Assembly (NCBI GenBank): GCA_964343885.1
Contig: CAYFLC010000003.1
Coordinates: forward strand, 1-33,512
DNA: 33,512 bases
Reading direction: 5' to 3'
Source: an uncultured Bifidobacterium sp.
GTDB lineage: Bacteria; Actinomycetota; Acidimicrobiia; Acidimicrobiales; Ilumatobacteraceae
Made by a program: the position numbers and the translations under genes. Positions within the stretch are counted from its first letter, which is position 1, and each line of letters begins with the position of its first letter. Under the pieces are notes generated by a model, which ran no database searches, had not been told where the DNA came from, and saw nothing but the letters and a program-made list of their open reading frames with translations. Shown piece by piece: positions 1 to 33,512 of the stretch.

Positions 1-2
1 CT

Positions 3-248
3 TCTGCACCGTTCATCATCGGACTTGCATGCGGATGGTGGGCTGCGAGCGGATGGAAGAATCCGTTTGCGGTTCAAACGGGAATCGTGGTGTGGATGGC
101 CACCGTCGTGATCGGAATGTTGCTGCGCAACTTCATGTGGGATCGCGGAACTGCCGTTGCATTCATCATCGTTGCAACCGTCTTCAACGCACTCACCCTG
201 ATTGGCTGGCGCGTCGTACGCGAGAACATCACACAGCGACGGGCGTAG
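3..248 (+). CDS. Hypothetical integral membrane protein, C-terminal fragment (5' end lies outside the window)
   Basis: The frame is open from the window edge to TAG at 246-248. The translation SAPFIIGLACGWWAASGW...IVVWMATVVIGMLLRNFMW...AVAFIIVATVFNALTLIGWRVVREN shows three hydrophobic helix-like segments. It is absent from the ORF track because it has no start codon in the window. Confidence 0.5.
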   Translation, partial: SAPFIIGLACGWWAASGWKNPFAVQTGIVVWMATVVIGMLLRNFMWDRGTAVAFIIVATVFNALTLIGWRVVRENITQRRA

Positions 249-280
249 ATTCTCGGCGCGACTCTGCGTCGTAAGGGATT

Positions 281-321
281 TCGGTGTGTAAGTGCTCGTT
301 TTCCGAGCTTTTACACACCGA
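281..321. terminator. Bidirectional stem-loop between convergent genes (membrane protein and ilvD)
   Basis: tcggtgtgtaa gt gctcg ttttc cgagc tt ttacacaccga forms an 11-bp outer stem plus a 5-bp inner stem, separated by a 2-nt internal mismatch, with a 5-nt loop. It lies in the 86-nt gap between stop codons at 246-248 (plus strand) and 335-337 (minus strand). There is no U-tract on either side. Confidence 0.6.
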
Positions 322-334
322 GAACCCTCAAGAG

Positions 335-2041
335 TTAGAAGTTGGTGATCGCCCCGGTTTCGGCGCCCTGCACGAGCTTTGCGTACTTGCCAAGCACTCC
401 TGTCGTGTAGCGCGGTGGGTTCGGCTGCCAGCCGACCTTGCGCTTGGCCAGTTCGTCGTTGCTGACCAGCAAGTCGAGACGCTTCTCGTGCACATCGATG
501 AGGATGCGGTCGCCGTCGCGTACGAACGCGATCGGCCCACCGTCGACCGCCTCGGGTGCGACGTGTCCGATACAGAAGCCCCACGTGCCGCCACTGAATC
601 GACCATCGGTGATGAGCGCACAGTCGTAGCCGCGCCCTGCACCCTTCAGCGCACCGGTAATCGCGAGCATCTCGCGCATTCCCGGGCCGCCCTTCGGGCC
701 CTCGTAACGAATGACGAGCACGTCGCCCGGCTTGATCTTGCCGGCAAGGATCTCGGCCATCGCGCCGTCTTCTCCGTCGAACACACGCGCATTTCCCTCG
801 AAGTGCATCTGGTCGTGCGTGAGGCCCGCAACCTTGACGACCGACCCCTTCGGCGCGAGCGACCCGGTGAGCACGTTGATGCCGCCGTCGCTGTGAATCG
901 GGTCGGACAACGGGTGGATGACGTCACCGTCGGGCCCGGGCGGGTTGATGTCGGCGAGATTCTCGGCCATGGTCTTGCCGGTCACGGTCATGACGTCACC
1001 GTGCAACAAGCCCGCGTCAAGCAGCATCTTCAACACAACGGGAACGCCGCCGATGCGGTCGATGTCGGACATGTGGTACTTGCCGCCCGGCTTGGTGTCG
1101 GCGATATGCGGCACCTTCGCAGCGATGCGGTTGAAGTCGTCGAGGCTGAGCTCGACGCCGATTTCATTAGCAATCGCGAGCAAGTGCAGCACGGCATTGG
1201 TGCTGCCTCCGAAAGCGTTGGTGACGGCGATGGCATTCTCGAACGCCTTCTTCGTCATGATGTCTTTCGGACGAAGGCCAAGGCGCAGCATGTTCACCAC
1301 AGCCTCGCCTGCGCGGCGCGCGTCATCGTCGCGACGACCGTCGATTGCCGGCGGCGAGGCGGTGCCCGGAAGGCTCATGCCCAATGCTTCGGCGATCGAT
1401 GACATGGTGTTTGCGGTGAACATTCCGCCGCATGCACCCTCACCCGGGCAGGCCTTCTCTTCGATTGCTTTCAGTTCGGCATCGTCGATCGTGCCGAGCG
1501 CATGCGCACCGACGGCTTCGAAAACGCTGGTGATATCGAGTGCCTTGCCGTCGTGATGACCGGGCATGATCGAACCGTTGTAGACGAACACCGACGGAAG
1601 ATTCAGGCGCGCGGCCGCCATCAACATCGCGGGAATGCTCTTGTCGCATCCTGCAAGGCCGACGAAACCATCGAATCGCTCGGCATGGACAACCGTTTCG
1701 ACCGAGTCGGTGATGACCTCGCGGCTGACCAGTGACGCGCGCATTCCTTCGTGACCCATCGAAATTCCGTCGCTGACCGTGATGGTGCCGAACTCGAGGG
1801 CAACACCACCGGCATCGCGGACACCACGCTTGGCGTGATCGGCCAACTTCCGCAAGGTCATGTTGCAGGGCGTGACTTCATTCCATGCCGATGCGATACC
1901 GATCTGCGGCTTCTGCCAATCGTCGTCGCCGAGGCCGACCGCGCGAAGCATCGCGCGCGCCGGCGCCTTCTGCGGGCCGTCGGTGACGTCGCGACTGCGC
2001 GGCTTGATGTCGACTGGAGTGCCGTCCGGTGTTGTTGCCAT
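335..2041 (-). CDS. ilvD: Dihydroxy-acid dehydratase (IlvD/Edd family), 568 aa
   Basis: Family motifs [28 protein letters not shown] and [10 protein letters not shown] are present across the full length. I chose the start at MATTPDG (ATG 2039-2041 on the minus strand) because the 26 extra codons of the track ORF are Arg-rich and overlap the upstream gene. Confidence 0.93.
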
Positions 2042-2051
2042 GGACGAGAGG

Positions 2052-2903
2052 CTATTGGGCGGGAACGGCGACCTTCTCGTTCGTCGCGACCGACGACGTT
2101 TTTGTTGCGCGATCTCCACGCAGGAATGCCCACGTGATCGGAATCAGGTAGGCAAAGTACGCGATGACCCGAATTTTCTCGGCCTCGTTGTGCCATCCGA
2201 AGAATCCTGAGATGAAGTCGTAGAAGGTTCCGCTGGACCATGCACCCGACGTGACGGTCCACGCCGGCGCAACGAGCCATCCGGACTCGAACCCGAGCAA
2301 TTCTCGATATTCGTGGAAGAACTTGCCGAACAGACCAGCTGCGAAGAGGATCAACAACACGCCGGTCACGTTGAAAAAAACCCGAAGATTCAAGCGGTTA
2401 CCGCCCGCATAAACGAGTCGACCGAGGACTGCTGCGACAGCCAAGCCGAATAAGCCTCCGATGACCACGCTCGAGCCACTCGCCGAGGCTGTTTCAGCCG
2501 AAATGAGGAAGAGCACCGTTTCCAAACCTTCGCGCAAGACCGCAACGAACGCAATCGTCGCAAGCGCTCTGTGCGTCTCTGCACGGTCGACCTGTGCGCG
2601 GAGTTCAGCTCCGAGACCGCGCGAATTCTTTCGCATCCAGAAGATCATCCACGTCAGAACCGCGGCCGCCGTGATGGCGATCGTCCCCTCGATGAACTGT
2701 TCGGCCTTGCCCGTGAACTCGCCGACGAACACGTGGAACGCGATACCGCCGATCAAGCAGATGACGGCGGCGGTACCGGCTCCGCGCCAGACGGCGGCGA
2801 CATCGGCCTGACGGCCACTCTTCACCAGATACGCGATGAGGATCGCCAGAACGAGGGCGATCTCGAGACCTTCGCGCAATGTGATGAGAAAACTTGCTCC
2901 CAA
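2052..2903 (-). CDS. FTR1/EfeU-family high-affinity iron permease, 283 aa
   Basis: Two REGLE (RExxE) motifs are present ([10 protein letters not shown] and [10 protein letters not shown]) in a polytopic hydrophobic protein. It uses a TTG start preceded by GGAGG 7 nt upstream. Its stop lies 10 nt before the ilvD start. Confidence 0.82.
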
Positions 2904-2953
2904 CGGGGGACCTCCGGGGTGAGGACGAGTTGTGCGGATAAGTGTAAGGACTA

Positions 2954-2991
2954 CCTAACGCAATGTTAGGGCTGCCAAACAAACTTGTCAA
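2954..2991 (-). promoter_or_regulatory. Candidate sigma-A-type promoter (TTGACA-17 nt-TAACAT) overlapping a CCTAAC-N5-GTTAGG palindrome, upstream of the iron permease
   Basis: Read on the minus strand: gTTGACAagtttgtttggcagcccTAACATtgcgttagg. The -10 hexamer overlaps the left half of the inverted repeat CCTAACattgcGTTAGG (2954..2970). It lies about 50-85 nt upstream of the TTG start. Confidence 0.4.
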
Positions 2992-3025
2992 CTCGATGGA
3001 AGTCGAACCGGCAGACGAGAAAACG

Positions 3026-4282
3026 CTATCGCCGATCGGCGGGCACGCCGAAGCCGAAGAGGTTGCTGCCGACCTTGCGCATCTGAATTTCCTCGCTGCC
3101 TTCGGTGATGCGGTAGCGGCGGTGGTGTCGGTAAATGTGCTCAAAGGGCATGTGTCGCGAGTAGCCGACTCCCCCGCACGTTTGCATCGCACGGTCGGCG
3201 GCTTCGCAGGCCAGGCGATTGCCGCGGTAGTTGCACATCGCCACGAGGTGTGTGACTTCCATGTGGTGCTTCTGGTCGAGCGACCACGCCGTGTAGCGCA
3301 CCAACTGGCGCAACATCGCGGCCTCGGTGTGCAACTCCACGAGTGGGAACTGGATGCCCTGGTTGCTCGACAGCTTCTTGCCCCACGTGACGCGACTGTT
3401 CGCGTACTTCACTGCCTCGTTGATGCAGAACTGCGCGGCACCGAGCGACGACGCGGCTTGGCGAATGCGGTTCTCGTGGACGAAGTGCTGTGCCAACTCG
3501 AGGCCGTGGTCAACACGGCCGAACACCGCATCGCTGCCGACGCGCACGTCTTTCATGCTCACTTCCGCATGATCGGTGGGCATGTTGAAGGTCCACCAGA
3601 AAAAATCGACGTTGAAACCGGGCGAATCGGTGGGCACGAGGAAGGCTGTGATTCCGACGGGGTCGCCGGGCTTGCCGCTGGTGCGGGCGAAGATGATGTC
3701 GTGCGTGGCGTGATGCAGGCCACTGTTCCAACGCTTCATGCCGTTCAGCACCCACTCGTCGCCGTCACGGTAGGCGGTTGTTTCCAGATACGTCGCGTCA
3801 CTTCCGTGGTTCGGCTCGGTGAGCCCGAACGCAAGACGGCGCGTGCCATCGAGGAATCCGGGCATCCATGCAGCCTTCTGCGCTTCGGTACCGAAGTCGC
3901 GCATCATCAACACGGTGGGAAAGTTGCCGACGATGCTCGACTCGTTCTGCAAGTCGTTGTGAAGACCGAGACCCTTCGTGGCGAGGTGTTCGCGAATGAT
4001 GGCCATTTCGAGGTTGCTCGCATCGCGGCCGCCGAACTCCTTGGGCAACGCCAGACGCAACCAACCCGCGGCGTCGGCACGACGGCGCATTTCGCGCAAC
4101 AACGCCTCCCAGTCGGCCCGCGGCACACCGTCGTTCTCGAAGTCTGTGCGCGCCCACTCACGCCGGTGATCGAAGAACCGCATGTTGTCGTCTTGATTCT
4201 GCAGCGGCGTGATTTCCGCATCGATGAATGCATCGAGCGCGTCGAGCGTTGCCTGAATTTCATTCGGGATCGCAAAGTCCAT
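3026..4282 (-). CDS. Acyl-CoA dehydrogenase family protein, 418 aa
   Basis: ACAD signatures FGLTEPNHGSDATYL and YRITEGSEEIQMRKV are present. I chose the start at MDFAIPNEIQ (ATG) because the 74 upstream codons of the track ORF are Arg/Pro-rich and overlap the divergent gene. Confidence 0.88.
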   Translation of the reverse strand: MDFAIPNEIQATLDALDAFIDAEITPLQNQDDNMRFFDHRREWARTDFENDGVPRADWEALLREMRRRADAAGWLRLALPKEFGGRDASNLEMAIIREHLATKGLGLHNDLQNESSIVGNFPTVLMMRDFGTEAQKAAWMPGFLDGTRRLAFGLTEPNHGSDATYLETTAYRDGDEWVLNGMKRWNSGLHHATHDIIFARTSGKPGDPVGITAFLVPTDSPGFNVDFFWWTFNMPTDHAEVSMKDVRVGSDAVFGRVDHGLELAQHFVHENRIRQAASSLGAAQFCINEAVKYANSRVTWGKKLSSNQGIQFPLVELHTEAAMLRQLVRYTAWSLDQKHHMEVTHLVAMCNYRGNRLACEAADRAMQTCGGVGYSRHMPFEHIYRHHRRYRITEGSEEIQMRKVGSNLFGFGVPADRR

Positions 4283-4392
4283 ACCCCGAGGGTAGGCGAC
4301 GGGTTTCACGGCCTGAGAACGCGCCGACCATCGGTTACCGAGCGGTAGGAAAGGCAAGATGGATCCGTAATACAACAGCAAAGGCAGAACAA

Positions 4393-5265
4393 ATGGCAGC
4401 AACCCAGGTATCCCGTGTCGGCGTCGTTGGATGCGGCTTGATGGGATCCGGCATCGCCGAGGTGTGCGCAAAGGCCGGCCTCGACGTGATGGTGCGCGAG
4501 GCAAACCCGGCCGCGATGGAAGCCGGCCAGAAACGCCTGATCTCGTCGCTCGACCGTGCGCTCGGCGCGAACAAGATCACCGAAGACGAGCGCGACTCGG
4601 CCCTGGCGCGGCTGAGCTTCACCACCGACATGGCCGACTTCGCCGACCGCCAACTCGTCGTCGAAGCAATCGTCGAGGACGAAGCGATGAAGACCGATGT
4701 CTTCGCGCAACTCGACAAGTACCTCAACGACGACAACGCGATTCTCGCAACGAATACTTCGTCGATCCCCGTGATGAAGCTCGGCATGGCGACGAAGCGA
4801 CCCTCGCAAGTCGTGGGTATTCACTTCTTCAACCCCGTTCCTGTGTTGCGTCTGGTCGAACTCGTACCGTCGCTCTTGACCTCGCAAGAGACCATCTCGC
4901 GCGCCGTCGACTTCGCCGAGACGACACTGCGCAAGCGCGTCATCCGCTCGAACGACCGTGCGGGCTTCATCGTCAATGCGTTGCTCGTGCCCTACATCCT
5001 CTCCGCGGTGCGCATGATGGAATCGGGTTACGCATCGGCGGAAGACATCGACCTCGGCATGGTCGAAGGTTGCGCGCACCCGATGGGCCCGCTGCGCCTC
5101 GCCGACCTCATCGGCCTCGACACCATCGTCGCGATCGCCGAAAGTCTCTACATGGAATTCAAAGAACCGCTGTACGCGGCACCGCCGCTCTTGTCGCGCA
5201 TGGTCGATGCAGGTTTGCTCGGCCGCAAGGCAGGGCGCGGTTTTTACGACTACACGAAGAAATAA
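4393..5265 (+). CDS. 3-hydroxyacyl-CoA / 3-hydroxybutyryl-CoA dehydrogenase (NAD-binding), 290 aa
   Basis: An N-terminal Rossmann motif VGVVGCGLMGSGIAE and the family motif GIHFFNPVPVLRLVELV are present. I chose the start at MAATQVSRVG (ATG 4393). Confidence 0.9.
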   Translation: MAATQVSRVGVVGCGLMGSGIAEVCAKAGLDVMVREANPAAMEAGQKRLISSLDRALGANKITEDERDSALARLSFTTDMADFADRQLVVEAIVEDEAMKTDVFAQLDKYLNDDNAILATNTSSIPVMKLGMATKRPSQVVGIHFFNPVPVLRLVELVPSLLTSQETISRAVDFAETTLRKRVIRSNDRAGFIVNALLVPYILSAVRMMESGYASAEDIDLGMVEGCAHPMGPLRLADLIGLDTIVAIAESLYMEFKEPLYAAPPLLSRMVDAGLLGRKAGRGFYDYTKK

Positions 5266-5292
5266 GAAAAGACGAGAAAGAAGGAACGAGCC

Positions 5293-6441
5293 ATGGCTGA
5301 CCAGCAGTTTTCGCTCGACGAAGAACAACTCGCGTTCCGCGACGTGATCCGCCGTTTCGCGGAAGAAAAGATCGCACCACTCGCCGCCGAAACCGACCGC
5401 ACGGGCGAATACTCGTGGGATTCGTTCAAGGCACTGCAGCAAATGGAACTCACGGCCCTGTCGTATCCCGCCGAGTACGGGGGCAGTGGTGCTCCCCTCG
5501 TCACACAGGCGGTCGTCGCCGAAGAACTCGCGCGTGTGTGTGCAAGTACCAGCCTCATGTTCCTCATTTCGAAACTCGGCATGCTTCCCGTCATCAACTT
5601 CGGTAGCCATGAGTTGAAGTCGAAGTACTTGCCCCGCATCTGCAGCGGCGAGTCGCAGTGCAGCTATGGCTTGTCGGAAGCCGACGCCGGAAGCGACGTT
5701 GCGTCAATGACAACGCACGCAATCCGCGACGGCAACGACTGGATCATCAACGGCTCGAAGATCTGGATCACCAACGCAAGTATCAGCGATCTCTACACCG
5801 TGTTCGCACGCACAAGCGACGACCGCCACAAGGGCCTCACCGCTTTTCTCGTCGAAGCCGATTGGGGTGTGCATGTCGACAAGCTCGAACACAAGCTCGG
5901 AATCAAGGGCTCGCCCACCGGCGTCATCCGCTTCGATGACATGCGCGTTCCCGATGCAAACCGAATCGGCGAGGTGGGTCAAGGCTTCACCATCGCAATG
6001 CACACCCTCGACCGCAGCCGGCCAACGATCGGTGCGCAGGCCGTGGGGATCGCCCAGGGTGCGATCGACTTCGCCGTCAACTACATGAAGGAACGCAAAA
6101 CCTTTGGCGCCGCATTGTCGACGCGTCAAGGCTTGCAATGGATGGTTGCCGAAGCGCAAATGCAGGTCGAGGCAGCACGCACGATGGTGTACCGCGCGTG
6201 TGCCGCTGTCGACGCAGGCGACCAGCACGGCGATCTTTCGACCCTCGGTGCCATGGCGAAGTGGTTCGCGTCGGACGTGGCGATGAAGGTCACCACCGAC
6301 TGCGTACAGCTCTTGGGCGGCTACGGCTACACCAACGATTTCCCTGTCGAGCGCATGATGCGCGACGCGAAGATCACACAGATCTACGAGGGCACGAACC
6401 AGATCCAGCGCATGGTCGTGTCGAAAAAGATCTTCGGCTAA
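5293..6441 (+). CDS. Acyl-CoA dehydrogenase (short/branched-chain type), 382 aa
   Basis: Motifs YGLSEADAGSDVASM and ITQIYEGTNQIQRMVVSK are present. An AGGA ribosome-binding site lies upstream of the ATG, 27 nt after the preceding gene. Confidence 0.92.
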   Translation: MADQQFSLDEEQLAFRDVIRRFAEEKIAPLAAETDRTGEYSWDSFKALQQMELTALSYPAEYGGSGAPLVTQAVVAEELARVCASTSLMFLISKLGMLPVINFGSHELKSKYLPRICSGESQCSYGLSEADAGSDVASMTTHAIRDGNDWIINGSKIWITNASISDLYTVFARTSDDRHKGLTAFLVEADWGVHVDKLEHKLGIKGSPTGVIRFDDMRVPDANRIGEVGQGFTIAMHTLDRSRPTIGAQAVGIAQGAIDFAVNYMKERKTFGAALSTRQGLQWMVAEAQMQVEAARTMVYRACAAVDAGDQHGDLSTLGAMAKWFASDVAMKVTTDCVQLLGGYGYTNDFPVERMMRDAKITQIYEGTNQIQRMVVSKKIFG

Positions 6442-6459
6442 CCCACAACCAACAAGTCG

Positions 6460-7599
6460 TCACAGCGACGACGTTGCCGGGGCGAGACACCCGACGATGA
6501 ACGCGAGGCGACGCGATTCGCCCGAAATGTCGGACATGTGGTTGCAATCGAGGTCGACCACTGCAACAACCTTGTCGTTCTCCCACCAGAACTTCACGCC
6601 GGCGTGGCCCTTGTTCCAGTCGTTCAATTCACCGAGCAGGAAGTCGCTGCAGTCGATGCCACGTGTGATGGTCGCCGACAGGCGACAAATGGGGTGTCTG
6701 CCGCCGTGCACCTCGGCGCGTACCTGAACCAAGTCGACGAGAAATTCGACGGCACGGTCGCCGTCGCGTGTGAAATCGATTCCGGCGTTCGACAATTCGC
6801 GGCGCATCGTGCTTCCCCATTCGAGCGCCACCGGATCGATGAACGGACACGTGAGCGTCCAACCTTTGCCAACCACACGGCATCCGCTGCCGTTCGGTCC
6901 GTCGATCTGGAATTCGATGGTGTCGTCGCCGTCGTCGGACGTTGTAAAGTCGCGAAGAACACGTGCAACGATGCTGACCGCGCTGTGGAAGCTGGCCGTG
7001 CCGTCGGTTTCAGCCGACACCGAGACCGTCGCGCGACCTTGGGCATGGCCCGACCAATCGCTATGAAAGGCAATGCGACCGTTCTCGACCACGCACCACA
7101 GAGGTGGCCCGTATCCGGGGAAGTCGACGCCGATCGGCGGCGTGCGAGCGGCATCGAGAATGTCGGCGAGGCGCGCACCGGAAACCCTGGCCGTGCACTC
7201 GACCGACTCGAGTTCGAAGACCTGACCGGGTTCGAAGGTGGGAAGGTCGTACGCCAGTGTGACGTCGGGAAAGGTGATCACGAATGATTCGTCGTCGCCG
7301 AGCGACAACCTGCCGTCGGTTTCGGACTTGGCAACATCGGTGATGGCATTCGCTGCGCGCGCGGTGAACGGCACGCGAAACGAACCAACGACACCCGATT
7401 CGACCGCCACGTATTCGAAGTGAAATCTGGACGAAGAGATGTGCCAGACGCGGCGACCACCCGCAACTTCGAGCCACATACGGAACCATCCGTTGTCTTT
7501 CGCTTCGAACGCAGTGACGAAGTGCCAGAGGCGCCACCATTCGTCGAACGGAACATGCTGCGGATTCGCGGCGAACCCATCGCGGTTGCCCGGGCTCAT
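6460..7599 (-). CDS. Hypothetical protein, 379 aa (C-terminal region possibly YbjN-like; unverified)
   Basis: This is a long ORF with coding-like composition. I chose the start at MSPGNRDGF, whose ATG overlaps the stop of the upstream small ORF (ATGA). No family motif was recognised with certainty. Confidence 0.6.
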   Translation of the reverse strand: MSPGNRDGFAANPQHVPFDEWWRLWHFVTAFEAKDNGWFRMWLEVAGGRRVWHISSSRFHFEYVAVESGVVGSFRVPFTARAANAITDVAKSETDGRLSLGDDESFVITFPDVTLAYDLPTFEPGQVFELESVECTARVSGARLADILDAARTPPIGVDFPGYGPPLWCVVENGRIAFHSDWSGHAQGRATVSVSAETDGTASFHSAVSIVARVLRDFTTSDDGDDTIEFQIDGPNGSGCRVVGKGWTLTCPFIDPVALEWGSTMRRELSNAGIDFTRDGDRAVEFLVDLVQVRAEVHGGRHPICRLSATITRGIDCSDFLLGELNDWNKGHAGVKFWWENDKVVAVVDLDCNHMSDISGESRRLAFIVGCLAPATSSL

Positions 7600-7955
7600 C
7601 GGTACATCCTTGGGTGAACGCGCGACGAGCCGACGCCCGGTTCGAACGGTGATGACACAGGGTCGGGAGTCGGCACGAAATCGGACGACGTGACATCGTC
7701 GTCGGCACCGTCGGCACCCATCGCACACGGAGCACCGACGCGCAGAGCGAGGTCTTCGAGTGTGTTGGCCAGACGCGCCGCAGCCGTGATGTCGAGCCCA
7801 CCGAATGAGACAAGTTCACCGTCGAGTGACACCCACGCGCTCTTGTCGGCCGCAGTCGGCACGATCGACAAGTCACCCAGTGCGCGCACCAGGCGGCGGA
7901 ACACGGCCGCCGCGGCTGCCTGTGTGGGGTCTGACGGGGACGGTGCGGTGGACAA
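7596..7955 (-). CDS. Small hypothetical protein, 119 aa
   Basis: A TTG start is preceded by AAGGAG 7 nt upstream (aAAGGAGcccacaTTG on the minus strand). It is in frame with the C-terminal part of track ORF 7596..8432. Its stop overlaps the downstream start (ATGA). Confidence 0.5.
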   Translation of the reverse strand: MSTAPSPSDPTQAAAAAVFRRLVRALGDLSIVPTAADKSAWVSLDGELVSFGGLDITAAARLANTLEDLALRVGAPCAMGADGADDDVTSSDFVPTPDPVSSPFEPGVGSSRVHPRMYR

Positions 7956-8094
7956 TGTGGGCTCCTTTGTGCCGATCGGAAGCCCAGAGTGCCAAGGGGG
8001 TGTCATACGTCTGCCTCGGGTGGCGACCCTCACACCAAAACCACTATTTTCAGGGGTCTCGCCGCCGGTCCCGGTGGCCTCACAGGGGGCAGAA

Positions 8095-9009
8095 ATGTTC
8101 GACTTCAAGGGAAAGACCGTTCTCATCACCGGCGCTTCGTACGGCCTCGGTGCCAGCTTCGCCGAAGGCTTCGCGGGCGCAGGCGCCAACCTGATCCTCA
8201 CGGCCCGTAGCAAGGACCTCCTCGAGCAGACCGGTGAGGCGTGCCGCAAGCTCGGCGCAAAGGTTCTGTGCGTCACGGGCGACGTGTCGATCGAAGACGA
8301 TGTGAAGCGTGTCGTCGCAGCGGGCATCAAAGAGTTCGGTGGCATCGACACCCTCGTCAACAACGCCGGCATCTCCGACGTGAAGGGCATCGGCGCCGAG
8401 CGCTTCCCCACCGACTCGTTCGACAACATCATGGCGGTCGACCTCCGCGGCGCGTTCCTCTACATGCGCGAAGTCGGCCTGCACATGTTGCTGAAGAAGA
8501 GCGGCAACATCGTCAACATCTGCTCGATCATGGGAAGCGGCGCGAACGAAATGAACATCATCGCCTACACCGCAGCGAAGGGTGCGCTGCGCAACATCAC
8601 CCAGCAGCTCGGTTGCGAGTGGGCCGACCGTGGTGTTCGCGTCAACGCCGTCAGCCCCGGTTTCATCATCACTGAAATGACCCGCGTCGCACTCGAAGGC
8701 ATGGGCATGGACAAGTGGATCGCCTCACGCACACCGATGCGTCGTCTCGGCGAGGTGAAGGAAATCGTTGCACCCGTCATGTTCTTGGCCTCCGACATGG
8801 CCGGGTACATCACGGGTCACGACCTCCTCGTCGACGGCGGTACCAATGCGGCGAACGGCTACTACCAGTTGCAGCCGATCCACCACGCGTGGAACGCCGA
8901 CACGGCTCCCATGGCACCGGGCGCGTACCCCGGTCTGCTCCCACGACCCGACTGGGCAACTCCGTTGCTGCCCGGCATCCCGGGCGTTCACTACCCGCTG
9001 CCCGAGTAA
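8095..9009 (+). CDS. SDR-family oxidoreductase with a roughly 50-aa Pro-rich C-terminal extension, 304 aa
   Basis: Motifs TVLITGASYGLG (TGxxxGxG-type), NNAG and Y..AK (YTAAKGA) are present. I chose the start at MFDFKGK (ATG 8095); the 135 upstream codons of the track ORF are Ala/Ser/Arg-rich and not SDR-like. Confidence 0.85.
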   Translation: MFDFKGKTVLITGASYGLGASFAEGFAGAGANLILTARSKDLLEQTGEACRKLGAKVLCVTGDVSIEDDVKRVVAAGIKEFGGIDTLVNNAGISDVKGIGAERFPTDSFDNIMAVDLRGAFLYMREVGLHMLLKKSGNIVNICSIMGSGANEMNIIAYTAAKGALRNITQQLGCEWADRGVRVNAVSPGFIITEMTRVALEGMGMDKWIASRTPMRRLGEVKEIVAPVMFLASDMAGYITGHDLLVDGGTNAANGYYQLQPIHHAWNADTAPMAPGAYPGLLPRPDWATPLLPGIPGVHYPLPE

Positions 9010-9021
9010 TCGCCATTTCGC

Positions 9022-10035: not shown

Positions 10036-10047
10036 ACGTTCGCGGCA

Positions 10048-11153: not shown

Positions 11154-11206
11154 GACGCACCCCCGCCTCTTTCTACCACCCGTGCCGTATCGGCAAGACT
11201 GGCTGC

Positions 11207-23465: not shown

Positions 23466-23477
23466 TGCCGCGAACGT

Positions 23478-24491: not shown

Positions 24492-24503
24492 GCGAAATGG
24501 CGA

Positions 24504-25418: not shown

Positions 25419-25557
25419 TTCTGCCCCCTGTGAGGCCACCGGGACCGGCGGCGAGACCCCTGAAAATAGTGGTTTTGGTGTGAGGGTCGCCACCCGAGGC
25501 AGACGTATGACACCCCCTTGGCACTCTGGGCTTCCGATCGGCACAAAGGAGCCCACA

Positions 25558-25917
25558 TTGTCCACCGCACCGTCCCCGTCAGACCCCACACAGGCAGCCG
25601 CGGCGGCCGTGTTCCGCCGCCTGGTGCGCGCACTGGGTGACTTGTCGATCGTGCCGACTGCGGCCGACAAGAGCGCGTGGGTGTCACTCGACGGTGAACT
25701 TGTCTCATTCGGTGGGCTCGACATCACGGCTGCGGCGCGTCTGGCCAACACACTCGAAGACCTCGCTCTGCGCGTCGGTGCTCCGTGTGCGATGGGTGCC
25801 GACGGTGCCGACGACGATGTCACGTCGTCCGATTTCGTGCCGACTCCCGACCCTGTGTCATCACCGTTCGAACCGGGCGTCGGCTCGTCGCGCGTTCACC
25901 CAAGGATGTACCGATGA
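25558..25917 (+). CDS. Mirror copy: small hypothetical protein (119 aa)
   Basis: Exact reverse complement of 7596..7955. AAGGAG is at 25546-25551 and the TTG start at 25558. Confidence 0.5.
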   Translation: MSTAPSPSDPTQAAAAAVFRRLVRALGDLSIVPTAADKSAWVSLDGELVSFGGLDITAAARLANTLEDLALRVGAPCAMGADGADDDVTSSDFVPTPDPVSSPFEPGVGSSRVHPRMYR

Positions 25918-27053
25918 GCCCGGGCAACCGCGATGGGTTCGCCGCGAATCCGCAGCATGTTCCGTTCGACGAATGGTGGCGCCTCTGGCACTTCGTCACT
26001 GCGTTCGAAGCGAAAGACAACGGATGGTTCCGTATGTGGCTCGAAGTTGCGGGTGGTCGCCGCGTCTGGCACATCTCTTCGTCCAGATTTCACTTCGAAT
26101 ACGTGGCGGTCGAATCGGGTGTCGTTGGTTCGTTTCGCGTGCCGTTCACCGCGCGCGCAGCGAATGCCATCACCGATGTTGCCAAGTCCGAAACCGACGG
26201 CAGGTTGTCGCTCGGCGACGACGAATCATTCGTGATCACCTTTCCCGACGTCACACTGGCGTACGACCTTCCCACCTTCGAACCCGGTCAGGTCTTCGAA
26301 CTCGAGTCGGTCGAGTGCACGGCCAGGGTTTCCGGTGCGCGCCTCGCCGACATTCTCGATGCCGCTCGCACGCCGCCGATCGGCGTCGACTTCCCCGGAT
26401 ACGGGCCACCTCTGTGGTGCGTGGTCGAGAACGGTCGCATTGCCTTTCATAGCGATTGGTCGGGCCATGCCCAAGGTCGCGCGACGGTCTCGGTGTCGGC
26501 TGAAACCGACGGCACGGCCAGCTTCCACAGCGCGGTCAGCATCGTTGCACGTGTTCTTCGCGACTTTACAACGTCCGACGACGGCGACGACACCATCGAA
26601 TTCCAGATCGACGGACCGAACGGCAGCGGATGCCGTGTGGTTGGCAAAGGTTGGACGCTCACGTGTCCGTTCATCGATCCGGTGGCGCTCGAATGGGGAA
26701 GCACGATGCGCCGCGAATTGTCGAACGCCGGAATCGATTTCACACGCGACGGCGACCGTGCCGTCGAATTTCTCGTCGACTTGGTTCAGGTACGCGCCGA
26801 GGTGCACGGCGGCAGACACCCCATTTGTCGCCTGTCGGCGACCATCACACGTGGCATCGACTGCAGCGACTTCCTGCTCGGTGAATTGAACGACTGGAAC
26901 AAGGGCCACGCCGGCGTGAAGTTCTGGTGGGAGAACGACAAGGTTGTTGCAGTGGTCGACCTCGATTGCAACCACATGTCCGACATTTCGGGCGAATCGC
27001 GTCGCCTCGCGTTCATCGTCGGGTGTCTCGCCCCGGCAACGTCGTCGCTGTGA
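25914..27053 (+). CDS. Mirror copy: hypothetical protein (379 aa)
   Basis: Exact reverse complement of 6460..7599. The ATG at 25914 overlaps the TGA at 25915-25917. Confidence 0.6.
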   Translation: MSPGNRDGFAANPQHVPFDEWWRLWHFVTAFEAKDNGWFRMWLEVAGGRRVWHISSSRFHFEYVAVESGVVGSFRVPFTARAANAITDVAKSETDGRLSLGDDESFVITFPDVTLAYDLPTFEPGQVFELESVECTARVSGARLADILDAARTPPIGVDFPGYGPPLWCVVENGRIAFHSDWSGHAQGRATVSVSAETDGTASFHSAVSIVARVLRDFTTSDDGDDTIEFQIDGPNGSGCRVVGKGWTLTCPFIDPVALEWGSTMRRELSNAGIDFTRDGDRAVEFLVDLVQVRAEVHGGRHPICRLSATITRGIDCSDFLLGELNDWNKGHAGVKFWWENDKVVAVVDLDCNHMSDISGESRRLAFIVGCLAPATSSL

Positions 27054-27071
27054 CGACTTGTTGGTTGTGGG

Positions 27072-28220
27072 TTAGCCGAAGATCTTTTTCGACACGACCA
27101 TGCGCTGGATCTGGTTCGTGCCCTCGTAGATCTGTGTGATCTTCGCGTCGCGCATCATGCGCTCGACAGGGAAATCGTTGGTGTAGCCGTAGCCGCCCAA
27201 GAGCTGTACGCAGTCGGTGGTGACCTTCATCGCCACGTCCGACGCGAACCACTTCGCCATGGCACCGAGGGTCGAAAGATCGCCGTGCTGGTCGCCTGCG
27301 TCGACAGCGGCACACGCGCGGTACACCATCGTGCGTGCTGCCTCGACCTGCATTTGCGCTTCGGCAACCATCCATTGCAAGCCTTGACGCGTCGACAATG
27401 CGGCGCCAAAGGTTTTGCGTTCCTTCATGTAGTTGACGGCGAAGTCGATCGCACCCTGGGCGATCCCCACGGCCTGCGCACCGATCGTTGGCCGGCTGCG
27501 GTCGAGGGTGTGCATTGCGATGGTGAAGCCTTGACCCACCTCGCCGATTCGGTTTGCATCGGGAACGCGCATGTCATCGAAGCGGATGACGCCGGTGGGC
27601 GAGCCCTTGATTCCGAGCTTGTGTTCGAGCTTGTCGACATGCACACCCCAATCGGCTTCGACGAGAAAAGCGGTGAGGCCCTTGTGGCGGTCGTCGCTTG
27701 TGCGTGCGAACACGGTGTAGAGATCGCTGATACTTGCGTTGGTGATCCAGATCTTCGAGCCGTTGATGATCCAGTCGTTGCCGTCGCGGATTGCGTGCGT
27801 TGTCATTGACGCAACGTCGCTTCCGGCGTCGGCTTCCGACAAGCCATAGCTGCACTGCGACTCGCCGCTGCAGATGCGGGGCAAGTACTTCGACTTCAAC
27901 TCATGGCTACCGAAGTTGATGACGGGAAGCATGCCGAGTTTCGAAATGAGGAACATGAGGCTGGTACTTGCACACACACGCGCGAGTTCTTCGGCGACGA
28001 CCGCCTGTGTGACGAGGGGAGCACCACTGCCCCCGTACTCGGCGGGATACGACAGGGCCGTGAGTTCCATTTGCTGCAGTGCCTTGAACGAATCCCACGA
28101 GTATTCGCCCGTGCGGTCGGTTTCGGCGGCGAGTGGTGCGATCTTTTCTTCCGCGAAACGGCGGATCACGTCGCGGAACGCGAGTTGTTCTTCGTCGAGC
28201 GAAAACTGCTGGTCAGCCAT
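27072..28220 (-). CDS. Mirror copy: acyl-CoA dehydrogenase (382 aa)
   Basis: Exact reverse complement of 5293..6441. Confidence 0.92.
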   Translation of the reverse strand: MADQQFSLDEEQLAFRDVIRRFAEEKIAPLAAETDRTGEYSWDSFKALQQMELTALSYPAEYGGSGAPLVTQAVVAEELARVCASTSLMFLISKLGMLPVINFGSHELKSKYLPRICSGESQCSYGLSEADAGSDVASMTTHAIRDGNDWIINGSKIWITNASISDLYTVFARTSDDRHKGLTAFLVEADWGVHVDKLEHKLGIKGSPTGVIRFDDMRVPDANRIGEVGQGFTIAMHTLDRSRPTIGAQAVGIAQGAIDFAVNYMKERKTFGAALSTRQGLQWMVAEAQMQVEAARTMVYRACAAVDAGDQHGDLSTLGAMAKWFASDVAMKVTTDCVQLLGGYGYTNDFPVERMMRDAKITQIYEGTNQIQRMVVSKKIFG

Positions 28221-28247
28221 GGCTCGTTCCTTCTTTCTCGTCTTTTC

Positions 28248-29120
28248 TTATTTCTTCGTGTAGTCGTAAAAACCGCGCCCTGCCTTGCGGCCGAGCAAAC
28301 CTGCATCGACCATGCGCGACAAGAGCGGCGGTGCCGCGTACAGCGGTTCTTTGAATTCCATGTAGAGACTTTCGGCGATCGCGACGATGGTGTCGAGGCC
28401 GATGAGGTCGGCGAGGCGCAGCGGGCCCATCGGGTGCGCGCAACCTTCGACCATGCCGAGGTCGATGTCTTCCGCCGATGCGTAACCCGATTCCATCATG
28501 CGCACCGCGGAGAGGATGTAGGGCACGAGCAACGCATTGACGATGAAGCCCGCACGGTCGTTCGAGCGGATGACGCGCTTGCGCAGTGTCGTCTCGGCGA
28601 AGTCGACGGCGCGCGAGATGGTCTCTTGCGAGGTCAAGAGCGACGGTACGAGTTCGACCAGACGCAACACAGGAACGGGGTTGAAGAAGTGAATACCCAC
28701 GACTTGCGAGGGTCGCTTCGTCGCCATGCCGAGCTTCATCACGGGGATCGACGAAGTATTCGTTGCGAGAATCGCGTTGTCGTCGTTGAGGTACTTGTCG
28801 AGTTGCGCGAAGACATCGGTCTTCATCGCTTCGTCCTCGACGATTGCTTCGACGACGAGTTGGCGGTCGGCGAAGTCGGCCATGTCGGTGGTGAAGCTCA
28901 GCCGCGCCAGGGCCGAGTCGCGCTCGTCTTCGGTGATCTTGTTCGCGCCGAGCGCACGGTCGAGCGACGAGATCAGGCGTTTCTGGCCGGCTTCCATCGC
29001 GGCCGGGTTTGCCTCGCGCACCATCACGTCGAGGCCGGCCTTTGCGCACACCTCGGCGATGCCGGATCCCATCAAGCCGCATCCAACGACGCCGACACGG
29101 GATACCTGGGTTGCTGCCAT
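28248..29120 (-). CDS. Mirror copy: 3-hydroxyacyl-CoA dehydrogenase
   Basis: Exact reverse complement of 4393..5265. Confidence 0.9.
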   Translation of the reverse strand: MAATQVSRVGVVGCGLMGSGIAEVCAKAGLDVMVREANPAAMEAGQKRLISSLDRALGANKITEDERDSALARLSFTTDMADFADRQLVVEAIVEDEAMKTDVFAQLDKYLNDDNAILATNTSSIPVMKLGMATKRPSQVVGIHFFNPVPVLRLVELVPSLLTSQETISRAVDFAETTLRKRVIRSNDRAGFIVNALLVPYILSAVRMMESGYASAEDIDLGMVEGCAHPMGPLRLADLIGLDTIVAIAESLYMEFKEPLYAAPPLLSRMVDAGLLGRKAGRGFYDYTKK

Positions 29121-29230
29121 TTGTTCTGCCTTTGCTGTTGTATTACGGATCCATCTTGCCTTTCCTACCGCTCGGTAACCGATGGTCGGCGCGTTCTCAG
29201 GCCGTGAAACCCGTCGCCTACCCTCGGGGT

Positions 29231-30487
29231 ATGGACTTTGCGATCCCGAATGAAATTCAGGCAACGCTCGACGCGCTCGATGCATTCATCGATGCGGAAA
29301 TCACGCCGCTGCAGAATCAAGACGACAACATGCGGTTCTTCGATCACCGGCGTGAGTGGGCGCGCACAGACTTCGAGAACGACGGTGTGCCGCGGGCCGA
29401 CTGGGAGGCGTTGTTGCGCGAAATGCGCCGTCGTGCCGACGCCGCGGGTTGGTTGCGTCTGGCGTTGCCCAAGGAGTTCGGCGGCCGCGATGCGAGCAAC
29501 CTCGAAATGGCCATCATTCGCGAACACCTCGCCACGAAGGGTCTCGGTCTTCACAACGACTTGCAGAACGAGTCGAGCATCGTCGGCAACTTTCCCACCG
29601 TGTTGATGATGCGCGACTTCGGTACCGAAGCGCAGAAGGCTGCATGGATGCCCGGATTCCTCGATGGCACGCGCCGTCTTGCGTTCGGGCTCACCGAGCC
29701 GAACCACGGAAGTGACGCGACGTATCTGGAAACAACCGCCTACCGTGACGGCGACGAGTGGGTGCTGAACGGCATGAAGCGTTGGAACAGTGGCCTGCAT
29801 CACGCCACGCACGACATCATCTTCGCCCGCACCAGCGGCAAGCCCGGCGACCCCGTCGGAATCACAGCCTTCCTCGTGCCCACCGATTCGCCCGGTTTCA
29901 ACGTCGATTTTTTCTGGTGGACCTTCAACATGCCCACCGATCATGCGGAAGTGAGCATGAAAGACGTGCGCGTCGGCAGCGATGCGGTGTTCGGCCGTGT
30001 TGACCACGGCCTCGAGTTGGCACAGCACTTCGTCCACGAGAACCGCATTCGCCAAGCCGCGTCGTCGCTCGGTGCCGCGCAGTTCTGCATCAACGAGGCA
30101 GTGAAGTACGCGAACAGTCGCGTCACGTGGGGCAAGAAGCTGTCGAGCAACCAGGGCATCCAGTTCCCACTCGTGGAGTTGCACACCGAGGCCGCGATGT
30201 TGCGCCAGTTGGTGCGCTACACGGCGTGGTCGCTCGACCAGAAGCACCACATGGAAGTCACACACCTCGTGGCGATGTGCAACTACCGCGGCAATCGCCT
30301 GGCCTGCGAAGCCGCCGACCGTGCGATGCAAACGTGCGGGGGAGTCGGCTACTCGCGACACATGCCCTTTGAGCACATTTACCGACACCACCGCCGCTAC
30401 CGCATCACCGAAGGCAGCGAGGAAATTCAGATGCGCAAGGTCGGCAGCAACCTCTTCGGCTTCGGCGTGCCCGCCGATCGGCGATAG
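29231..30487 (+). CDS. Mirror copy: acyl-CoA dehydrogenase family protein (418 aa)
   Basis: Exact reverse complement of 3026..4282. The ATG is at 29231. Confidence 0.88.
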   Translation: MDFAIPNEIQATLDALDAFIDAEITPLQNQDDNMRFFDHRREWARTDFENDGVPRADWEALLREMRRRADAAGWLRLALPKEFGGRDASNLEMAIIREHLATKGLGLHNDLQNESSIVGNFPTVLMMRDFGTEAQKAAWMPGFLDGTRRLAFGLTEPNHGSDATYLETTAYRDGDEWVLNGMKRWNSGLHHATHDIIFARTSGKPGDPVGITAFLVPTDSPGFNVDFFWWTFNMPTDHAEVSMKDVRVGSDAVFGRVDHGLELAQHFVHENRIRQAASSLGAAQFCINEAVKYANSRVTWGKKLSSNQGIQFPLVELHTEAAMLRQLVRYTAWSLDQKHHMEVTHLVAMCNYRGNRLACEAADRAMQTCGGVGYSRHMPFEHIYRHHRRYRITEGSEEIQMRKVGSNLFGFGVPADRR

Positions 30488-30521
30488 CGTTTTCTCGTCT
30501 GCCGGTTCGACTTCCATCGAG

Positions 30522-30559
30522 TTGACAAGTTTGTTTGGCAGCCCTAACATTGCGTTAGG
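30522..30559 (+). promoter_or_regulatory. Mirror copy: candidate promoter TTGACA-17-TAACAT with overlapping CCTAAC-N5-GTTAGG palindrome
   Basis: TTGACA is at 30522-30527, TAACAT at 30545-30550 and the palindrome at 30543-30559. GGAGG is at 30598-30602 and the TTG start at 30610. Confidence 0.4.
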
Positions 30560-30609
30560 TAGTCCTTACACTTATCCGCACAACTCGTCCTCACCCCGGA
30601 GGTCCCCCG

Positions 30610-31461
30610 TTGGGAGCAAGTTTTCTCATCACATTGCGCGAAGGTCTCGAGATCGCCCTCGTTCTGGCGATCCTCATCGCGTATCTGGTGAAGAGTGGCC
30701 GTCAGGCCGATGTCGCCGCCGTCTGGCGCGGAGCCGGTACCGCCGCCGTCATCTGCTTGATCGGCGGTATCGCGTTCCACGTGTTCGTCGGCGAGTTCAC
30801 GGGCAAGGCCGAACAGTTCATCGAGGGGACGATCGCCATCACGGCGGCCGCGGTTCTGACGTGGATGATCTTCTGGATGCGAAAGAATTCGCGCGGTCTC
30901 GGAGCTGAACTCCGCGCACAGGTCGACCGTGCAGAGACGCACAGAGCGCTTGCGACGATTGCGTTCGTTGCGGTCTTGCGCGAAGGTTTGGAAACGGTGC
31001 TCTTCCTCATTTCGGCTGAAACAGCCTCGGCGAGTGGCTCGAGCGTGGTCATCGGAGGCTTATTCGGCTTGGCTGTCGCAGCAGTCCTCGGTCGACTCGT
31101 TTATGCGGGCGGTAACCGCTTGAATCTTCGGGTTTTTTTCAACGTGACCGGCGTGTTGTTGATCCTCTTCGCAGCTGGTCTGTTCGGCAAGTTCTTCCAC
31201 GAATATCGAGAATTGCTCGGGTTCGAGTCCGGATGGCTCGTTGCGCCGGCGTGGACCGTCACGTCGGGTGCATGGTCCAGCGGAACCTTCTACGACTTCA
31301 TCTCAGGATTCTTCGGATGGCACAACGAGGCCGAGAAAATTCGGGTCATCGCGTACTTTGCCTACCTGATTCCGATCACGTGGGCATTCCTGCGTGGAGA
31401 TCGCGCAACAAAAACGTCGTCGGTCGCGACGAACGAGAAGGTCGCCGTTCCCGCCCAATAG
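30610..31461 (+). CDS. Mirror copy: FTR1/EfeU-family iron permease
   Basis: Exact reverse complement of 2052..2903. Confidence 0.82.
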
Positions 31462-31471
31462 CCTCTCGTCC

Positions 31472-33178
31472 ATGGCAACAACACCGGACGGCACTCCAGT
31501 CGACATCAAGCCGCGCAGTCGCGACGTCACCGACGGCCCGCAGAAGGCGCCGGCGCGCGCGATGCTTCGCGCGGTCGGCCTCGGCGACGACGATTGGCAG
31601 AAGCCGCAGATCGGTATCGCATCGGCATGGAATGAAGTCACGCCCTGCAACATGACCTTGCGGAAGTTGGCCGATCACGCCAAGCGTGGTGTCCGCGATG
31701 CCGGTGGTGTTGCCCTCGAGTTCGGCACCATCACGGTCAGCGACGGAATTTCGATGGGTCACGAAGGAATGCGCGCGTCACTGGTCAGCCGCGAGGTCAT
31801 CACCGACTCGGTCGAAACGGTTGTCCATGCCGAGCGATTCGATGGTTTCGTCGGCCTTGCAGGATGCGACAAGAGCATTCCCGCGATGTTGATGGCGGCC
31901 GCGCGCCTGAATCTTCCGTCGGTGTTCGTCTACAACGGTTCGATCATGCCCGGTCATCACGACGGCAAGGCACTCGATATCACCAGCGTTTTCGAAGCCG
32001 TCGGTGCGCATGCGCTCGGCACGATCGACGATGCCGAACTGAAAGCAATCGAAGAGAAGGCCTGCCCGGGTGAGGGTGCATGCGGCGGAATGTTCACCGC
32101 AAACACCATGTCATCGATCGCCGAAGCATTGGGCATGAGCCTTCCGGGCACCGCCTCGCCGCCGGCAATCGACGGTCGTCGCGACGATGACGCGCGCCGC
32201 GCAGGCGAGGCTGTGGTGAACATGCTGCGCCTTGGCCTTCGTCCGAAAGACATCATGACGAAGAAGGCGTTCGAGAATGCCATCGCCGTCACCAACGCTT
32301 TCGGAGGCAGCACCAATGCCGTGCTGCACTTGCTCGCGATTGCTAATGAAATCGGCGTCGAGCTCAGCCTCGACGACTTCAACCGCATCGCTGCGAAGGT
32401 GCCGCATATCGCCGACACCAAGCCGGGCGGCAAGTACCACATGTCCGACATCGACCGCATCGGCGGCGTTCCCGTTGTGTTGAAGATGCTGCTTGACGCG
32501 GGCTTGTTGCACGGTGACGTCATGACCGTGACCGGCAAGACCATGGCCGAGAATCTCGCCGACATCAACCCGCCCGGGCCCGACGGTGACGTCATCCACC
32601 CGTTGTCCGACCCGATTCACAGCGACGGCGGCATCAACGTGCTCACCGGGTCGCTCGCGCCGAAGGGGTCGGTCGTCAAGGTTGCGGGCCTCACGCACGA
32701 CCAGATGCACTTCGAGGGAAATGCGCGTGTGTTCGACGGAGAAGACGGCGCGATGGCCGAGATCCTTGCCGGCAAGATCAAGCCGGGCGACGTGCTCGTC
32801 ATTCGTTACGAGGGCCCGAAGGGCGGCCCGGGAATGCGCGAGATGCTCGCGATTACCGGTGCGCTGAAGGGTGCAGGGCGCGGCTACGACTGTGCGCTCA
32901 TCACCGATGGTCGATTCAGTGGCGGCACGTGGGGCTTCTGTATCGGACACGTCGCACCCGAGGCGGTCGACGGTGGGCCGATCGCGTTCGTACGCGACGG
33001 CGACCGCATCCTCATCGATGTGCACGAGAAGCGTCTCGACTTGCTGGTCAGCAACGACGAACTGGCCAAGCGCAAGGTCGGCTGGCAGCCGAACCCACCG
33101 CGCTACACGACAGGAGTGCTTGGCAAGTACGCAAAGCTCGTGCAGGGCGCCGAAACCGGGGCGATCACCAACTTCTAA
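31472..33178 (+). CDS. ilvD: Mirror copy: dihydroxy-acid dehydratase
   Basis: Exact reverse complement of 335..2041. The ATG is at 31472. Confidence 0.93.
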
Positions 33179-33191
33179 CTCTTGAGGGTTC

Positions 33192-33232
33192 TCGGTGTGT
33201 AAAAGCTCGGAAAACGAGCACTTACACACCGA
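33192..33232. terminator. Mirror copy of the bidirectional stem-loop
   Basis: Exact reverse complement of 281..321. Confidence 0.6.
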
Positions 33233-33264
33233 AATCCCTTACGACGCAGAGTCGCGCCGAGAAT

Positions 33265-33510
33265 CTACGCCCGTCGCTGTGTGATGTTCTCGCGTACGAC
33301 GCGCCAGCCAATCAGGGTGAGTGCGTTGAAGACGGTTGCAACGATGATGAATGCAACGGCAGTTCCGCGATCCCACATGAAGTTGCGCAGCAACATTCCG
33401 ATCACGACGGTGGCCATCCACACCACGATTCCCGTTTGAACCGCAAACGGATTCTTCCATCCGCTCGCAGCCCACCATCCGCATGCAAGTCCGATGATGA
33501 ACGGTGCAGA
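33265..33510 (-). CDS. Mirror copy: membrane protein C-terminal fragment
   Basis: Exact reverse complement of 3..248. Confidence 0.5.
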   Translation of the reverse strand, partial: SAPFIIGLACGWWAASGWKNPFAVQTGIVVWMATVVIGMLLRNFMWDRGTAVAFIIVATVFNALTLIGWRVVRENITQRRA

Positions 33511-33512
33511 AG

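Follow-up and report, generated by a model that had tools for sequence, protein, structure and literature searches.

The 33,512-nt window (the whole stretch of DNA that was analysed, corresponding to a whole contig) is very likely a fold-back misassembly in which the real DNA comprises positions 1-16756 only, and its palindrome almost certainly arose as an artefact of assembly or of the library. In the protein collection, the surface protein encoded next to the centre is recorded on one 33,512-nt contig with NCBI as the source. A comparison of the window with its own reverse complement gave 0 mismatches over all 33,512 nt, and the base counts are mirror-symmetric (A = T = 6516, C = G = 10240). 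The axis, 16756|16757, has no spacer (central sequence ...CGCAGGACGACT|AGTCGTCCTGCG...), and an exact self-complementarity of this length cannot have arisen by chance. Elsewhere in the arm, no spacer-less palindrome with a half-length >7 was found. The first-pass annotation had described a perfect, loop-less palindrome spanning the whole window and containing 15 unique genes with identical twins, a description that proved correct on every point checked. The unique arm contains 15 genes, 13 complete and two cut at the arm ends, and all twins are identical. Gene calls from two independent related contigs (L028 and L029, see below) were used for some of the assignments in the following list.

1-16756, no strand: real unique arm; part of the chromosome of an aquatic Actinomycetota bacterium, colinear with independent non-palindromic contigs
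16747-16766, no strand: fold-back junction; core ACT|AGT, without spacer
16757-33512, no strand: artefactual mirror copy; exact reverse complement of 1-16756, no fold-back in L034, depth of the palindromic ENA contig not doubled
3-248, plus strand: DUF3054 gene, 3' part; cut by the contig end, frame open as far as the stop (246-248), also called as a gene in L028 and L029
335-2041, minus strand: dihydroxy-acid dehydratase (ilvD), 568 aa; Pfam ILVD_EDD_N and ILV_EDD_C
2052-2903, minus strand: FTR1-family iron permease; Pfam FTR1, 5e-49
3026-4282, minus strand: acyl-CoA dehydrogenase, 418 aa; Pfam
4393-5265, plus strand: 3-hydroxyacyl-CoA dehydrogenase; Pfam 3HCDH_N and 3HCDH
5293-6441, plus strand: acyl-CoA dehydrogenase, 382 aa; Pfam, exact protein on 5 other contigs
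6460-7599, minus strand: hypothetical protein, 379 aa; weak TY-Chap1 match (PF22551, 1.6e-6)
7596-8006, minus strand: hypothetical protein, 136 aa; gene calls in L028 and L029, without PHROG family
8095-9009, plus strand: short-chain dehydrogenase/reductase; Pfam adh_short_C2
9022-10035, plus strand: conserved hypothetical protein, 337 aa; without Pfam or PHROG family, in all related contigs covering the site
10048-10533, minus strand: glyoxalase/dioxygenase-superfamily protein; Pfam Glyoxalase
10530-11099, minus strand: carboxymuconolactone-decarboxylase-family protein; Pfam CMD, start from the L028 gene calls
11207-13018, plus strand: biotinyl-domain and carboxyltransferase fusion protein, 603 aa; Pfam Biotin_lipoyl and Carboxyl_trans
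13029-14441, plus strand: secreted alpha/beta hydrolase (TAP-like), 470 aa; Pfam Abhydrolase_1 and Abhydrolase_4
14428-16756, minus strand: surface-protein gene, 5'-truncated by the axis; 775 codons without a start, Ig-like tandem modules, SUEL-lectin domain, beta-propeller-like C-terminal region

The content of the arm is ordinary, with genes of branched-chain amino-acid and fatty-acid metabolism beside a strain-variable surface protein. Searches against Pfam and PHROGs over the 16.7 kb examined identified no telomere resolvase (ResT/TelN/TelK/TelA-type), phage or plasmid gene among the 15 arm genes, and Rfam and tRNA scans identified no RNA gene in the arm.

The axis does not coincide with a biological landmark and splits both the open reading frame of the surface protein and one of its Ig-like modules in mid-domain. 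Neither a start codon nor a signal peptide is found at the axis end of this frame, which stays open across the axis; the first in-frame stop is located in mirrored sequence (16707-16709). The first 34 residues of the surface protein correspond to the last 34 columns of an Ig-like module of 85-92 residues (score 69, compared with a shuffle mean of 28.4 and SD of 4.5), the modules being delimited by self-alignment as a direct Pfam search does not recognise them. The SUEL_Lectin domain is matched by Pfam at 2e-10. The surface-gene region is ~10% divergent between strains, compared with ~0.1-0.4% in the remainder, and at least five other assemblies break within the same gene, a place typical for graph fragmentation given this strain variability.

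An independent contig of the same species (ERZ27292198 k119_734141, 19,015 bp, MEGAHIT-style, designated both L028 and L034) is colinear with the arm and differs from the window at 0-4 positions per kb across 3-12 kb. The first-pass annotation had stated that the natural-palindrome reading would fall if the surface-protein frame continued past 16756 in another assembly, and exactly such a continuation is found in L034: past the axis position the contig carries 730 nt of non-mirrored sequence (243 extra codons) without similarity to the mirrored arm, extending the homologous frame to at least 1018 codons. The 51 residues that the cut module lacks in the window are encoded in this continuation, as are two further modules. 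Identity between L034 and the window falls from 84-90% on the left side of the axis to 21-28% on the right side. The surface gene of L034 is a divergent allele (~88-90% identical near the axis) and not the allele of the window itself. The refutation of a natural palindrome by L034 is therefore strong, although not absolute since L034 carries a different surface-gene allele. Overall, the arm is colinear with at least five independent non-palindromic contigs (L028/L034, L029, L030, L031, L032, L036, and L037; 97.4-99.6% identity). Beyond window position 1, L028 extends by 1530 nt and L029 by 239 nt, and the related contigs show one continuation only in this outward direction.

Further searches at the axis returned no contig that continues the allele of the window. 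The hydrolase encoded next to the surface gene belongs to a 12-member cluster at 90% from many assemblies, and all contigs that encode its members P0082, P0075, P0081, and P0078 end before the axis. A search of genome contigs with the hydrolase gave a 76%-identical MAG contig as the sole match, which ends short of the axis. None of the close surface-protein homologues (P0002-P0005) covers the axis, each being either a fragment or a protein with a different N-terminal region. The axis-proximal 340 aa matched only SUEL-lectin domains of unrelated proteins among metagenome contigs, the axis-proximal 240 aa matched only distant Ig-like proteins, and a search with the N-terminal 300 aa of L034 yielded no contig in which the allele of the window extends upstream of the axis.

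A second palindromic contig is present in the ENA assembly ERZ9869192 (NODE_8280_length_6510_cov_4.66, a SPAdes-style name) and has exactly the axis of the window. The first-pass annotation had proposed to compare the coverage of the arms with that of neighbouring contigs; in ERZ9869192 this comparison points to a single copy (coverage of 4.66 in the palindromic NODE_8280, 4.26 in the adjacent non-palindromic NODE_2412), the ratio of 1.09, not 2, representing one low-depth comparison for which we infer the meaning of the SPAdes coverage value. A duplication is incompatible with a depth of 1x, whereas a molecule with a hairpin end would also give 1x. The NCBI contig (33.5 kb) and NODE_8280 (6.5 kb) are one mirrored SNP apart. 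Because their consensus sequences are near-identical with clustered differences, the two contigs probably derive from one read set or from sibling read sets. The axis shared by two assemblies is in itself an observation that counts against an artefact, as truly independent libraries would imply a reproducible cause.

The continuation in L034 and the undoubled coverage support the ranking of the first-pass annotation, which had placed an artefact first, and strongly indicate that the natural genome lacks the palindrome. We infer a graph mechanism in which the assembly of a low-coverage population would have broken inside the strain-variable, internally repetitive surface-protein gene, and the de Bruijn graph would have joined the strand at the break with its reverse complement (an "inverted loop" or self-conjugate edge). 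With no true continuation surviving, the assembler may have crossed this link and returned along the same sequence on the opposite strand. The expected output is the arm followed by its reverse complement, with both ends growing symmetrically to the next graph branch. Two ways of seeding the link can be envisaged. A polymerase switching templates at a short quasi-palindrome near CT|AG may have generated a fold-back chimeric read, or a few such reads. Alternatively, a perfect palindrome of natural origin and limited length (k-1 bases or more for the smallest k) may have been located at a coverage gap and kept through the multi-k iterations. The first 10 nt past the axis position in L034 agree with the mirrored sequence at 7 out of 10 positions and then drop to random level. 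This agreement at the switch point suggests a natural quasi-palindrome or microhomology and fits a switch at a quasi-palindrome.

Contigs of this kind have been described before. Two reports describe whole-contig palindromes, namely 81 contigs from Mycobacterium bovis isolates assembled with SPAdes (PMC9455707) and contigs in single-cell assemblies of hot-spring Synechococcus (bioRxiv 10.1101/2023.06.06.543983), which the authors deemed assembly errors and removed for inflating gene counts. These contigs share with the window that the entire contig is an exact palindrome and that the gene duplicates are reverse complements with identical DNA; our impression is that 33.5 kb probably lies at the long end, and the artefact analysed here differs in that it could be traced to a particular break, within a repeat gene that varies between strains, and checked against a colinear contig. 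Rahman and Medvedev (2022, PMC9528984) showed by theory and simulation that a k-mer with a self-complementary (k-1) suffix creates an inverted loop, that a "lonely" loop results in a palindromic unitig, and that inverted loops are traversed by both SPAdes and MEGAHIT, which then output palindromic unitigs. In the same study low coverage led to unsafe unitigs even with error-free reads, a setting that resembles the ~4-5x coverage found here. A purely graph-level cause, which needs a natural perfect palindrome of at least 20 bp at the axis, is unproven: in contrast to the loops of that study, the related L034 allele gives a 7/10 quasi-palindrome only. In multiple-displacement amplification, most chimeras have an inverted junction, for which priming takes place at 2-21 complementary nt (Lasken and Stockwell 2007, PMC1855051). 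The junction in the window is likewise inverted, and a few complementary bases may have served to prime it, with the 7/10 agreement being measured on the divergent allele of L034.

The first-pass annotation had named three artefact routes (amplification chimeras, unrecognised long-read hairpin adapters, and assembler fold-back), among which a missed hairpin adapter is the least likely since a low-coverage contig with a SPAdes-style name repeats the axis. In a long-read artefact, both strands of one molecule would have been read consecutively (as a nanopore template-complement chimera or through a missed SMRTbell adapter), and assembly or polishing would have turned the result into a single contig. 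This route would produce a perfect, spacer-less palindrome spanning the full contig, and 33.5 kb is plausible for a single molecule. However, without shared data a random fold point would not turn up again in NODE_8280, which comes from a separate de Bruijn assembly, and zero differences across 16.7-kb arms would demand heavy polishing, making this explanation improbable.

Hairpin telomeres and their replicated junctions occur in Borrelia, the linear chromosome of Agrobacterium, and phage N15, and a read around such an end appears as a spacer-less perfect palindrome. A real covalently closed hairpin end, read around by the sequencer, predicts the missing spacer, the 1x coverage and the recurrence between assemblies, whether it is the telomere of a linear replicon or caps a chromosome break in some members of the population. 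In contrast to known hairpin telomeres, the axis in the window interrupts a protein domain inside an open reading frame, the conspecific L034 runs through the site, and the 16.7 kb carry housekeeping genes without a telomere resolvase or a phage or plasmid gene. To our knowledge, the characterised linear actinobacterial replicons have ends capped by terminal proteins and not by hairpins. A hairpin end thus seems very improbable. Equally slight is the chance that the chromosome in part of the population was truly broken in the surface gene and hairpin-capped, or carries a true spacer-less palindrome, either of which might have arisen by in vivo template switching at the quasi-palindrome and would thus have a reproducible junction.

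In bacteria, a spacer-less palindrome of 16.7 kb is a highly unstable structure. A palindromic amplification, in which the strain's chromosome would have undergone a real and recent inverted duplication, would account for the identical arms and for the axis common to two assemblies but is extremely improbable, as the palindromic contig has 1.09x and not 2x the depth of its single-copy flanking contig, the symmetric ends differ between the assemblies (6.5 and 33.5 kb) and therefore represent assembly breaks and not repeat boundaries, two outer flanks were not found among the related contigs with their single continuation past position 1, the arms have neither a spacer nor divergence, and L034 is not duplicated.

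With a fold-back misassembly as the preferred explanation, the significance of the palindrome is one of data hygiene only. The first-pass annotation had cautioned against counting the right-arm genes as paralogues, and they are not: positions 16757-33512 are an exact mirror and L034 does not fold back. One arm only should be counted and the second discarded. An uncorrected contig doubles 15 genes and inflates paralogue and pangenome counts, adds ~16.8 kb of false sequence to its bin or genome, and contains a truncated surface-protein gene that would pose as a divergent gene pair. Screening contigs against their own reverse complement is a cheap way to catch such cases.

A comparison of the window with its own reverse complement revealed identity at all 33,512 positions, confirming the description in the first-pass annotation of a perfect palindrome without a spacer. 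The axis lies between positions 16756 and 16757 and the centre reads ...CGCAGGACGACT|AGTCGTCCTGCG... The window is the complete contig, as the surface protein is recorded in the protein collection on a single 33,512-bp NCBI contig. The unique arm comprises 16,756 bp with 61% G+C and contains 15 genes:

DUF3054 gene, 3' end only
ilvD
FTR1 iron permease gene
two acyl-CoA dehydrogenase genes
3-hydroxyacyl-CoA dehydrogenase gene
two hypothetical genes (379 aa and 136 aa)
short-chain dehydrogenase gene
9022-10035, + strand, conserved hypothetical gene (337 aa, GTG start)
glyoxalase-family gene
carboxymuconolactone-decarboxylase-family gene
11207-13018, + strand, biotinyl-domain/carboxyltransferase fusion gene (603 aa)
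13029-14441, + strand, secreted alpha/beta hydrolase gene
14428-16756, - strand, gene for a large surface protein with a SUEL-lectin domain, cut at the axis

Scans of the arm for tRNA genes and Rfam families gave no match, the hypothetical proteins of the arm matched no phage families, and nothing similar to a telomere resolvase or to a plasmid or phage module was found among the 15 genes. Related contigs carry the label of Actinomycetota MAGs and the arm is ordinary chromosome.

The axis interrupts the surface-protein gene. From the stop at 14428 its reading frame runs open as far as the axis and across it, with the first in-frame stop 16 codons into the mirrored sequence (16707-16709), and the listed 766-aa ORF therefore begins at an arbitrary TTG; at the axis the ORF has neither a genuine start codon nor a signal peptide. 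The N-terminal region of the protein is built of Ig-like modules in tandem, each 85-92 residues long, and the 34 residues adjacent to the axis (VVLRAGTVSLTATQAATTNWNEASVTSTLTIDKA) align to the last third of such a module (local score 69 versus a mean of 28.4, SD 4.5 and maximum of 48 among 500 shuffles). Neither the end of a natural replicon nor a natural palindrome that is stable would be expected to fall mid-domain.

Five other metagenomic contigs encode a protein identical to the window's 382-aa acyl-CoA dehydrogenase, and the hydrolase is a member of a 12-member 90% cluster. The arm is matched colinearly along its full length, from outside window position 1 as far as the axis, by the 19,015-bp contig ERZ27292198 k119_734141, which carries loci L028 and L034. 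The contig shows 0-4 differences per kb over window 3-12 kb and approximately 10% divergence over 13-16.7 kb, and it is not palindromic. L034 runs on past the axis position: in the 50-700 nt to the left of the axis 84-90% of its bases agree with the window, and in the 50-700 nt to the right 21-28%, the random level. Its surface-protein ORF (...FSVAMADASRARITSTGRLVILRAGSVSLTATQAATTNWNEASV...) has no stop in the 1018 codons before the contig end, against 775 codons before the axis in the window's ORF, and the continuation completes the interrupted module with its missing 51 residues and adds two modules upstream of it; this comparison is with a different allele of a hypervariable gene. A continuation of the ORF into non-mirrored sequence is the observation that the first-pass annotation had named as refuting a natural palindrome, and it is found here in an allele that differs from that of the window.

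A second palindromic contig, NODE_8280_length_6510_cov_4.66 (ENA ERZ9869192), mirrors itself perfectly over its whole length about exactly the same axis. A single substitution, mirrored 19 nt from either contig end (its positions 19 and 6492, window 13520 and 19993), is all that separates it from the central 6,510 bp of the window, and probably reflects an error at the contig end or a strain variant at the branch of the graph where the contig stopped. The remainder of the arm (window 1-13167) is found in the same assembly on a normal contig, NODE_2412, with a coverage of 4.26. NODE_2412 differs from the window in a clustered pattern (25 of 47 differences in the first kilobase, many kilobases with none), which suggests that the two derive from one population and probably from the same or sibling read sets; the common axis is therefore no proof of independent recurrence.

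Taken together, the run-through in L034, a coverage ratio of 1.09 between NODE_8280 and NODE_2412, and the axis cutting a gene support the artefact interpretation that the first-pass annotation had listed first. A fold-back at a hairpin adapter of a long-read library is a less likely origin because the SPAdes-named contig shares the axis. A real hairpin end would fit single-copy coverage and a reproducible junction, but the mid-domain axis, the run-through contig and the gene content of the arm stand against it. A real inverted duplication would give a coverage ratio of approximately 2, and the observed 1.09 argues against two copies, with the SPAdes k-mer coverage of a self-complementary edge read by inference. 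The two palindromes are very unequal (6.5 kb vs 33.5 kb) and their symmetric ends are thus assembly breaks rather than biological repeat boundaries; on the outer side of window position 1 only one continuation, with DUF3054 and an inositol-1-phosphate synthase gene, is seen among the other contigs, which also speaks against a duplication. Even jointly, a hairpin end and a duplication are highly improbable.

An assembly artefact could arise in a de Bruijn graph of both strands, where a dead end whose terminal bases are linked to their own reverse complement would create an inverted loop and, with no rival branch surviving, a palindromic unitig. SPAdes and MEGAHIT push through inverted loops, and low coverage produces unsafe unitigs even with perfect reads (PMC9528984). 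Whole-contig palindromes have been described as errors, with 81 such contigs from cultured M. bovis assembled by SPAdes (PMC9455707) and further cases from single-cell assemblies (bioRxiv 10.1101/2023.06.06.543983). The link might be seeded by fold-back chimeric reads or, at the smallest k, by a short perfect palindrome of natural origin. Most chimeras in MDA are inverted, with the junction primed by complementary stretches of 2-21 nt (PMC1855051). In the 10 nt past the axis the L034 continuation matches the mirrored sequence at 7 positions before similarity vanishes. The site thus has the appearance of a quasi-palindrome around CT|AG, and such a structure would suit either route. Low coverage (approximately 4-5x), internal tandem repeats and allelic diversity together make a dead end in the graph more likely. 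Positions 1-16756 alone should be retained, with the surface-protein gene marked as truncated at its 5' end by a contig break; the palindrome is no new biological feature and has value chiefly as a quality-control example.

Comparison of conspecific contigs identifies the surface-protein gene as a strain-variable hotspot, and it contains the break points of at least five other assemblies (L026, L035, L036, L037 and L038). Divergence rises sharply from 0-4 differences per kb at window 3-12 kb to 43-101 per kb where the hydrolase and surface-protein genes lie. The divergent stretch (window 13000-16756, mirrored at 16757-20513; L034 10001-13728) resembles a cell-surface island that varies between strains and may be exchanged by recombination, and many assemblies end within it. 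In all related contigs except L039 (ERZ11848521 NODE_12958) the surface-protein gene lies on the - strand, convergent with the hydrolase gene; in L039 the gene after the hydrolase (5521-5697) is on the + strand. A different gene appears to occupy the site in this strain, which may lack the surface gene or carry another in its place. The SUEL-type (D-galactoside/L-rhamnose-binding) lectin domain spans window 15700-16030 on the - strand (residues ~235-309 of the 766-aa ORF), with oomycete proteins (Achlya, Saprolegnia) among the matches to this part, and the C-terminal ~440 aa resemble SBBP/beta-propeller repeat proteins of Hymenobacter.

The 603-aa fusion combines an N-terminal biotinyl (BCCP-like) domain with a carboxyltransferase domain in one protein, an architecture kept in all related contigs, and no biotin carboxylase gene was found in the arm. 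The 337-aa protein belongs to no Pfam or PHROG family, yet it is kept in every related contig that covers the site. The first acyl-CoA dehydrogenase (window 3026-4282) is called as 293 aa in NODE_2412 (L029 3265-4146) versus 418 aa in the window, L028 and the related contig L030; the BLAST alignment contains one gap and the shorter call is probably a frameshift or consensus error of the 4x assembly.
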